Origin: Myxococcota bacterium
Lineage (GTDB): Bacteria; Myxococcota; XYA12-FULL-58-9; JABJBS01
Length of the DNA stretch: 64,000 nucleotides
NCBI GenBank assembly: GCA_036339465.1
Contig: JAYZAY010000033.1
Coordinates: 32,001 to 96,000 of the forward strand
Reading direction: 5' to 3'
Shown: positions 14,108-15,269 of the stretch, in pieces
How positions within the stretch are numbered: position 1 is the first letter of the stretch
Layout of the letters: every line of letters starts with the position of its first letter
Made by a program: the position numbers and the translations under genes
The notes under the pieces: model-generated
What the model was told of the DNA's origin: nothing
What the model saw: the letters and a program-made list of their open reading frames with translations, nothing else
The model's database searches: none

Positions 14108-14120
14108 GGTCCCTCCGACA

Positions 14121-14136
14121 CTGTACAAATGTGCAT
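14121..14136. promoter_or_regulatory. Possible LexA (SOS) box upstream of the helicase operon
   Basis: Imperfect palindrome CTGTAC-AAAT-GTGCAT resembling GAAC-N4-GTTC-type LexA boxes. It lies between a minus-strand TTGACC and the RBS. Confidence 0.45.
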
Positions 14137-14255: not shown

Positions 14256-14290
14256 GTGGCGAATTACGACGCCACCATTTTAAAATGGCG
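14256..14290. promoter_or_regulatory. Candidate enhancer-binding-protein UAS palindromes
   Basis: GTGGCG-N8-CGCCAC overlapping CCATTTTAAAATGG, about 150-180 bp upstream of the sigma54 promoter at 14436. Confidence 0.45.
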
Positions 14291-14435
14291 GGGCCACTCA
14301 CAAAGAACAATTCCATGTTTGGGGCCAAAAGAGCTGGCTCCGCCCTTCAAGCCAAAGAAACGCGATCATCGATTCATAATTCCAAAAGTTGCGCAACACG
14401 ACACCAAATCGATTTTTAAAAGATCTAATTCACGA

Positions 14436-14451
14436 TGGCATGCAACTTGCT
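14436..14451 (+). promoter_or_regulatory. Sigma54 -24/-12 promoter
   Basis: TGGCATGCAACTTGCT, with GG and GC at exact consensus spacing. Confidence 0.75.
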
Positions 14452-14461
14452 ACATAACAAA

Positions 14462-14695
14462 GGGTGACCCACCACCCACCAATGAGACTGCGAAAGTAGA
14501 TAGGTGGCGGCGAGTGCACAACCAACAAAAAGCGAGTTTAATTTGGCTCGCAGGAAGCTGATAAAATAGTAGATCTTCCCCTAGATCTCTCCGACGGGCC
14601 CGTCCCCCTTTTCCCCTTAGGGCCCTAGGAAAATTTCAGCTTTGTAAGTCTCCCCCGGACTTCCCTGCGAGCCATCCCCGCTCTTTTCCCCTAAA
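14462..14695 (+). ncRNA. Putative sigma54-dependent structured sRNA with repeated UCCCC motifs
   Basis: No credible ORF downstream of the promoter. Contains a GAAA-tetraloop hairpin, a long-range stem 14544-14557/14660-14674, nested hairpins and six TCCCC motifs. Ends are approximate. Confidence 0.55.
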
Positions 14696-15269
14696 TTTTA
14701 TCCCACACAGCTTAAAAAGAGGTAAAAAGCCTCGGCCACTTCAGCGGACAATGGATTCCCAAGCACGCCGACTTGCACGGTTCAAACGATGCATAACCAC
14801 CAGCAACATCAACCACCCTTTCCCAGGCAATACCATAGACGATATTGTCGACCAAATCCCCTCAGGTCCTTTGGGACACCCATGAAATCCAATAATGGCT
14901 CGTTGGTGAGCAAAACCTGCGCCAAACAAAAAGCATTCCACTACTTTTGGGACCTCAAAACAGAGAGACGGCTGGATCCGTATGATTCAAGTACATGTCA
15001 TGGCGCATAAGTATGGCCTCCCATGGGAGAAAAATAAAAATCCCCTGTCAATTGATGTCCACTCACGTATTCAAAAACCTCAAGCCTAAATTCTATAACC
15101 CCCAATGGATAGGCCGAGCATTCACTTTTTTCAAAGGTGGCTGCGGAGACTACTTCTTCGTGGATTGTCACCTTGACCAAAATCACAAAGCCAAAGTATC
15201 GGCAACCTGAGACATTCACCCATGGAAGCTGGAATGCCCCATTTCGACGTGCTAACTGGAGAGTGAACT

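Follow-up and report, generated by a model that had tools for sequence, protein, structure and literature searches.

A candidate gene for a structured RNA, read from a sigma-54-type promoter, was located in a 64,000-nt stretch of DNA from a Myxococcota bacterium (the window, to which all positions below refer); a gene that stands alone and yields an RNA with a predicted length of about 230–260 nt is the best explanation of the locus. Seen in its sequence are repeats of enhancer type, a word resembling an IHF site, a sigma-54 promoter and a predicted closed multi-branch fold with C-runs in its loops (Table 1). The candidate is very probably a real, functional RNA and, if it is real, would likely act by pairing. 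The reading preferred here, a sigma-54-driven, base-pairing, trans-acting small RNA that would pair with G-run leaders without a chaperone, is given a probability of roughly 0.55. At the level of sequence, the case for a previously undescribed structured RNA under sigma-54 control draws on the anatomy of the promoter, the folding statistics, a pattern of divergence in one relative that respects the structure, short-ORF starts lost in that relative and the absence of any Rfam match. These points uphold in part the undescribed regulatory RNA proposed in the initial annotation; neither covariation nor conservation of the six-motif domain was found.

Locus, promoter and predicted fold

The candidate occupies part of a gap of ~1.15 kb that is flanked by the genes for an MrfA-like helicase and a CCA-adding enzyme, and neither terminal repeats nor a transposase were found that would mark this gap as a mobile element. 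The host genome (4.17 Mb, 49% G+C, 93% complete) was the sole member of its genus in the comparison, in which its class was represented by 22 genomes. The host stretch is present in seawater metagenomes, from which we infer a marine organism. RpoN, 12 sigma-54 activators (bacterial enhancer-binding proteins) and a GltG-like gliding protein are encoded, the closest activator gene lying about 10 kb from the candidate; Hfq was not found in this 93%-complete genome. In the 570 nt from the RNA to cca (14701–15269), two short ORFs without a Pfam match and no structure signal were seen, and on the minus strand, near 14713–14733, a weak hairpin is followed by a U-run. Just upstream of the helicase gene, a motif at 14118–14135 was matched by pattern search in G002, G003 and G004, where it is conserved; it resembles what we take to be the myxobacterial LexA box, which suggests SOS control of the helicase–exonuclease pair.

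The sigma-54 promoter first proposed at 14436–14451 was confirmed in its coordinates; the strict pattern occurs at 15 places in the whole genome, this one included, and the reversed control pattern at 4. Its spacing predicts a start near G14462. The UAS-like palindromes described at 14256–14290 are likewise present, as inverted repeats about 170–205 nt upstream of the predicted start, and their putative enhancer role follows from this position. Neither repeat was found upstream of other sigma-54 sites in the genome at up to four mismatches. With the word at 14407, which we take to be IHF-like, the candidate enhancer repeats and the sigma-54 site form the usual enhancer–bend–promoter layout. 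Among five relaxed sigma-54 sites in non-coding DNA, a strong fold was found downstream of this one only (the crude coding mask may hide others).

Six TCCCC words follow at exactly the positions given in the initial annotation (14577, 14603, 14612, 14651, 14675 and 14687). Spread over 115 nt, they are packed more densely than TCCCC is anywhere else in the 4.17-Mb genome; this is the only place on both strands with six copies per 120 nt, where about 0.14 copies would be expected, and the rough chance that this cluster falls within 250 nt downstream of any of the 15 strict sigma-54 sites is 4.5 × 10−4. By ensemble prediction four motifs are fully unpaired (probability ~1), the fifth is mostly unpaired and the sixth is largely paired. 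Five family genomes contain 102 strict sigma-54 sites, two of which were skipped because they lie at contig ends; folding the sequence after each of the other 100 gave no more than 2 unpaired C4 runs within 300 nt, compared with 5 at the candidate RNA.

For 14462–14700 (239 nt) a folding z-score of −3.7 was calculated, with none of 200 shuffles as good, and for the 3' domain (14524–14695) the z-score was −5.7 on the plus and −3.5 on the minus strand; when 271 non-coding windows of 172 nt were sampled, a single one attained −5. The 5' domain alone was not unusually stable on the plus strand (z −0.85), so that the dense structure of some 230 nt claimed originally holds for the whole and for the 3' domain and not for the 5' part taken by itself. 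The GAAA tetraloop and its stem, which belong to this 5' domain, are lost in the diverged contig described below. Both hairpins reported at the outset, AGATCT-tcccct-AGATCT and AAGTC-tcccccg-GACTT, are there as claimed, and P4 (GGGCCC/GGGCCC), which holds two motifs, is an addition. The long stem, drawn as 14544–14557/14660–14674, was retained for 11 pairs (14544–14554/14664–14674); its extension to 14557/14660 competes with the AAGCTGA/TCAGCTT stem (P2) and the AAGTC/GACTT hairpin (P5). Since a terminator scan gave no canonical terminator on the plus strand after the RNA, its 3' end is uncertain.

Table 1. Coordinates of the candidate RNA gene, its putative control elements and its neighbours
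Feature	Position	Strand	Remarks
MrfA-like DEAH/DUF1998 helicase	left of gap, divergent	−	followed by RNase H-like exonuclease
Two overlapping inverted repeats, candidate enhancer (UAS)	14256–14261/14270–14275 and 14272–14291		sequence
IHF-like site between enhancer and promoter	14407–14419	+	loosened-consensus match; direct repeat, similar copy 14368–14379
Sigma-54 −24/−12 promoter, TGGCATGCAACTTGCT	14436–14451	+	strict pattern match
Variable 5' hairpin	about 14462–14519	+	imperfect long stem; apical loop not conserved; fold prediction
A-rich linker and 5' arm of closing stem	14525–14557	+	alternative local GCGAG/CTCGC hairpin possible
Closed multi-branch domain	14544–14674	+	fold prediction; five nested Watson–Crick helices P1–P5
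P1	14544–14554/14664–14674	+	11 perfect pairs; encloses P2 and hairpin P5
P2	14555–14561/14636–14642	+	encloses hairpins P3 and P4
P3 hairpin	14571–14588	+	AGATCT/AGATCT, loop UCCCCU
P4 hairpin	14596–14625	+	GGGCCC/GGGCCC; 18-nt loop, two C-runs joined by U's
P5 hairpin	14646–14662	+	AAGTC/GACTT, loop UCCCCCG
3' tail, motifs 5 and 6	14675–14700	+	can pair back to 14527–14535
Second sigma-54-like word	14909–14924	−	relaxed match, pointing towards RNA
CCA-adding enzyme gene (cca)	right of gap	+	~570 nt downstream of RNA

Predicted start-site partners and proposed mode of action

The host 16S rRNA ends in CACCUCCUUU, and GGAG/AGGAG is the dominant start-site word. As the host anti-SD is CCUCC, UCCCC is not a strict anti-SD mimic; the term 'anti-SD-like' used for the motif needs narrowing, since UCCCC is complementary to a minority class of G-run (GGGGA) start sites and not to canonical GGAGG. 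GGGG was counted at −16 to −4 in 330 of 2726 crude gene calls (12%), about 3-fold more than in control windows (94 and 105), and GGGGA at the start sites of 149 of them (5.5%; 32 and 25 in control windows). Single loops matched start regions 2–3 times more often than control windows. The 10th-best start-site partner of the 18-nt loop was scored at −23.0 kcal/mol (shuffles −22.0 ± 0.6 kcal/mol, 0 of 25 as good), its best partner was equalled by 1 of 25 shuffles, and for the tail a partner as good as the best was obtained with 4 of 25 shuffles and also in control windows. At the top of the predictions were double-G-run leaders (GltG-like protein, GMC oxidoreductase, Fic protein, GlnD and MerR regulator), among which, as among the predicted targets in general, no common function was found. 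The target enrichment is modest, depends on the crude gene calls and can in part be put down to the purine richness of start sites. In the target prediction, a step that the initial annotation had suggested, the 18-nt loop slightly beat its shuffles; with margins of about 1 kcal/mol, similar best scores in control windows and mixed functions, the predicted partners are leads only.

In the proposed mechanism, one of the 12 enhancer-binding proteins would switch the RNA on under a specific signal, whereupon G:C-rich loop pairing would nucleate, without Hfq, on G-runs at or near ribosome-binding sites, and translation from the paired G-run leaders would be repressed. Two C-runs joined by a U-rich spacer, as present both in the 18-nt loop and in the 3' tail, would suit double-G-run leaders, and the presence of several loops may add avidity or reach. 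The missing terminator suggests that the mature 3' end is trimmed, possibly back to the closing stem, as RNase D processes Pxr.

The same sigma-54-driven RNA might instead serve as a decoy, its six UCCCC motifs titrating a C-rich-RNA-binding protein (RRM, KH or Rho) or a ribosome factor in the manner of CrcZ/CsrB. Repetition of one word in loops, as seen here, is a hallmark of sponge RNAs, and an analogous array in a related genome (L062, see below) repeats one loop word four times. Also in favour of a decoy, two RRM proteins are encoded by the host, no long unique target complement came out of the start-site partner search, and for sX13 compensatory mutations are reported not to have restored regulation (PMC3771888). 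Against it, the loops differ in length (6, 18 and 7 nt) and in context, unlike uniform protein sites, we know of no bacterial regulator that binds UCCCC, and the C-rich-loop bacterial sRNAs sX13, 6C and LhrC are all reported to act on mRNAs. Titration is on balance considered unlikely, and pairing with G-run leaders is retained as the preferred reading.

Conservation, strand and coding capacity

A comparison with Rfam, as suggested at the outset, gave no match of the region to any family (no hit at E ≤ 10, chance-level matches only). Homologues were found neither by BLAST in 60 relatives nor with the covariance model R1, for which this one sequence served as its own alignment partner, in sets of 100 and 21 genomes; a 26-nt conserved word, allowing up to three mismatches, gave 0 of 5, and a 20-nt word had no match in viral contigs. 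Short BLAST matches in the host's own genome lay in coding sequence and were rejected as paralogues. In all four family genomes in which the helicase and CCA genes are linked, the gap between them is short and devoid of the RNA, which was therefore gained, moved or lost at family depth. A metagenome scan with the CCA protein yielded 35 loci (best 44% identity), the best three of which had no promoter or TCCCC. A GTDB-wide search for the promoter-plus-motif pattern returned 94 loci that, among the matches listed, looked like chance or unrelated families, with E values of at least 1.8 for the six on which R1 was run. The three-motif pattern had two matches in 400 other genomes of the phylum, one a short gap before a gene start that had no promoter and was rejected, the other looking like a repeat.

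Also among the matches listed were a conserved, structured, sigma-54-driven segment with a C-rich loop upstream of a response-regulator gene in three planctomycete genomes (L152, L166 and L169) and, in Acidobacteriota (L118, L134, L142, L157, L164, L171, L175, L176 and L181), a conserved structured non-coding segment by a gene start, which is probably a leader read on the opposite strand.

Contigs from four runs were aligned to the locus. One 164-nt seawater contig from run X6 (record 9) aligns to 14427–14587 with 27 differences and two gaps (~83% identical); it is of low depth and covers the promoter and the 5' half, and the first is the sole one of the six motifs that it includes, in an unlisted end. 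All 22 listed differences and both gaps fall in 14457–14524, and none of the 33 positions of 14525–14557 is listed as changed, compared with 23 of 68 just upstream, the boundary having been chosen post hoc; the remaining differences, at most five, lie in the two unlisted 30-nt ends or in one further row. The promoter is thus near-identical and may hold a few of these differences. In the 5' hairpin, changes were counted at 6 of the 38 positions that are paired in the plus-strand fold, which was predicted from the host window alone, and at 12 of the 20 left unpaired (p = 0.0009); for the minus-strand fold the counts were 9 of 38 and 9 of 20 (p = 0.14). Inspection by hand showed that two mismatches become A–U pairs and that the outer stem re-forms in a shifted register, and that C14476–G14507 is broken; in all, at least three predicted pairs break. 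As the contig holds no two-sided compensatory change, the pattern is one of avoidance of paired positions and not of covariation. The search for homologues and covariation proposed in the initial annotation hence produced one diverged fragment whose changes avoid pairs, with neither compensatory change nor a homologue of the loop domain. The contig could represent a sister-species orthologue or an unassembled paralogue.

A non-functional or decaying sequence, in which a promoter-like word, C-skew and palindromes coincide by chance, would fit the lack of a homologue in any sequenced genome searched, and on C-rich strands z-scores tend to come out too negative and C-runs stay single-stranded by default. 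The joint occurrence of cluster, promoter and fold statistics, the five nested Watson–Crick helices and the non-random divergence of the X6 contig speak against it, and we consider it improbable.

More improbable still is a functional transcript of the minus strand, either a CsrB-like RNA with GGGGA loops or an antisense RNA from the site at 14909–14924. This reading has real support: the site, a relaxed sigma-54 match, faces the element from its other side, the minus strand gives the better fold of the 5' hairpin (z −2.15, with three G–U pairs), and the whole region reaches a z-score of about −2.1 there. CsrA (PF02599) was not found in the 93%-complete genome, a control search being positive in 3 of 14 genomes, and the plus-strand promoter abuts the structure, whereas the minus-strand site lies ~200 nt off across unstructured sequence. 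A strain variant in run X3, A14647G, would change A–U to G–U on the plus strand and keep its pair on that strand only; it was seen in one contig at a depth of 3.4 and may be an error. The larger 3' domain and the divergence pattern, both given above, favour the plus over the minus strand.

Equally small is the chance of a long 5' leader of cca, a peptide mRNA or a dual-function RNA. In its favour, no terminator follows the structure, cca lies 570 nt on along the same strand and short ORFs of 5–21 aa start inside the RNA; in addition, G001 and G004 have a sigma-54 mRNA that codes for two peptides and carries a C-loop hairpin at its end, and the L062 array begins directly behind an ORF of 71 aa. 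Against it, relatives in which cca is retained have a short gap before this gene and no comparable leader, and three ORFs of the gap have no Pfam match. In the X6 contig both short-ORF starts (ATG at 14482, GTG at 14514) are destroyed, the 21-aa frame (read by hand) has mostly amino-acid changes and two indels shift the promoter-spanning 101-aa frame between 14464 and 14502, the lost starts and the shifted frame arguing against a peptide.

Relation to Pxr and other C-rich-loop RNAs

Pxr is reported as an sRNA of Myxococcus and Cystobacterineae (RF01812; PMC5684412, PMC5568312, PMC10217877); a C-to-A change in the C-run of its loop is described as abolishing function (PMC5684412), and its direct targets are said to be largely unidentified (PMC11928866). 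Pxr is further characterised by long and short processed forms and by a part in the control of development. Its loop 1 consisted of U and a C-run in both Pxr copies compared, which strengthens the comparison with Pxr made in the initial annotation. Both RNAs come from the same phylum and share a sigma-54 promoter with an upstream enhancer (for the candidate, as judged from sequence), a C-run in a hairpin loop, which is essential in Pxr, a host lineage without Hfq and, plausibly, a processed 3' end. In contrast to Pxr (~109 nt, three hairpins, one C-loop), the candidate would be ~240 nt long, with a 5' hairpin and a closed multi-branch fold bearing six motifs; it has no terminator hairpin and lies beside helicase and CCA-adding enzyme genes, not directly downstream of genes of the pxrK/pxrR type. 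RF01812 was above cut-off in 2 of 41 genomes of the phylum and had no match in the host genome; local alignment of the candidate with Pxr was no better than with shuffles (112 of 200 and 82 of 200 as good), and the words common to both (AAGCGAG, GCTGA/TCAGC) are within chance. The candidate is probably a second sigma-54-driven RNA with C-run loops in Myxococcota, unrelated to Pxr and from a distant marine lineage.

Of the features of C-rich-loop pairing sRNAs as a functional class, loop-exposed C-runs are predicted here and G-run start sites were found in the host. The sX13 RNA of Xanthomonas is reported to repress G-motif mRNAs through 4C/5C loops without Hfq (PMC3771888); it resembles the candidate in its three apical 4C/5C loops, its Hfq independence and the G-runs at RBS position in ~5% of Xanthomonas genes (GGGGA in 5.5% here), and differs in its length of 115 nt, its three separate hairpins, its gammaproteobacterial host and the lack of a sequence or Rfam match to the candidate. 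The 6C RNA of Actinobacteria, whose C-rich loops are said to bind its targets unaided by a chaperone (PMC6486639), and LhrC of Listeria (PMC4132741) likewise have several redundant C- or CU-rich single-stranded sites for mRNA and need no chaperone, but are shorter RNAs of Gram-positive hosts with other folds, and the candidate has no Rfam match to them. Cuckoo/CcsR RNAs (PMC4615179) and NrsZ (PMC4253122) repeat a loop motif over several hairpins, and NrsZ is in addition described as sigma-54/NtrC-driven, at least 226 nt long and processed; the cuckoo loop, however, is CCUCCUCCC, a true anti-SD, in each of 2–4 adjacent hairpins, and NrsZ carries the loop ACAGGCAG and is reported to activate its target. 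Neither of these two motifs occurs in the candidate sequence. The best reading, by analogy, is that the candidate would work like Pxr, sX13, 6C and LhrC while belonging to none of them; it is probably a new architecture inside the known C-rich-loop class, a lineage-restricted, uncatalogued sRNA. No description of it was found in the literature searched, subscription journals being mostly outside the search scope.

In another genome of the same family (G002:C253, L062, ~999–1395), four long G–U-rich hairpins (z −5.5) carry C-rich loops of 18–27 nt built on near-identical words of the form UCCCCC-UUC-UCCC(C), which match the P4 loop of the candidate. This array lies behind a 71-aa ORF with a weak sigma-54-like word, is convergent with hemW, had no Rfam match and lacked a counterpart in 21 further genomes of the class. 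Homology to the candidate found no support (R1, E = 0.36; model R2 without a match in the host genome; no BLAST match; alignment reached by 19 of 200 shuffles), and a 14-mer of the P4/L062 loop kind in G005 was a chance occurrence in a coding region. The array is an independent-looking analogue and is itself a strong ncRNA candidate. Upstream of it, at ~140–250 and 485–590, two similar segments of ~110 nt have weak, sub-threshold Rfam matches on the minus strand.

Other sigma-54-driven units were noted in the compared genomes. At L055 (G001:C134) and L061 (G004:C429), a sigma-54-driven mRNA with a G-rich leader and small hydrophobic ORFs of 25 and 40 aa has a conserved 3' hairpin with a UCCCCC loop; this mRNA could base-pair with the G-run start sites that it carries or behave as a dual-function RNA. 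Five loci (L247, L274, L018, L019 and L285, in G001–G005) carry a family-wide, nearly leaderless, sigma-54-driven small membrane-protein ORF of ~55–65 aa ending in T[IV]EC, for which tblastn gave no match in the host genome. At L024 (G005:C74), two similar units of two hairpins each, with very strong folds, stand in tandem behind a sigma-54 site, likewise without a match in the host genome.

Speculatively, and with low confidence, the candidate RNA, the L062 array and Pxr might belong to one recurrent unrecognised class, an enhancer-dependent, multivalent poly-C scaffold that would read G-run leaders in Hfq-less lineages or titrate a shared poly-C-binding factor. If this were true, the class would read a second ribosome-binding-site code and switch a tenth of the translatome at once, and a role would be suggested for the essential C-loop of Pxr, which is still unexplained. 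The finding concerns a single lineage-restricted gene of an uncultured organism, in a phylum in which almost nothing is known of small RNAs beyond Pxr; together with the measurable class of G-run start sites, the candidate RNA provides a concrete hypothesis for chaperone-free regulation in Myxococcota.
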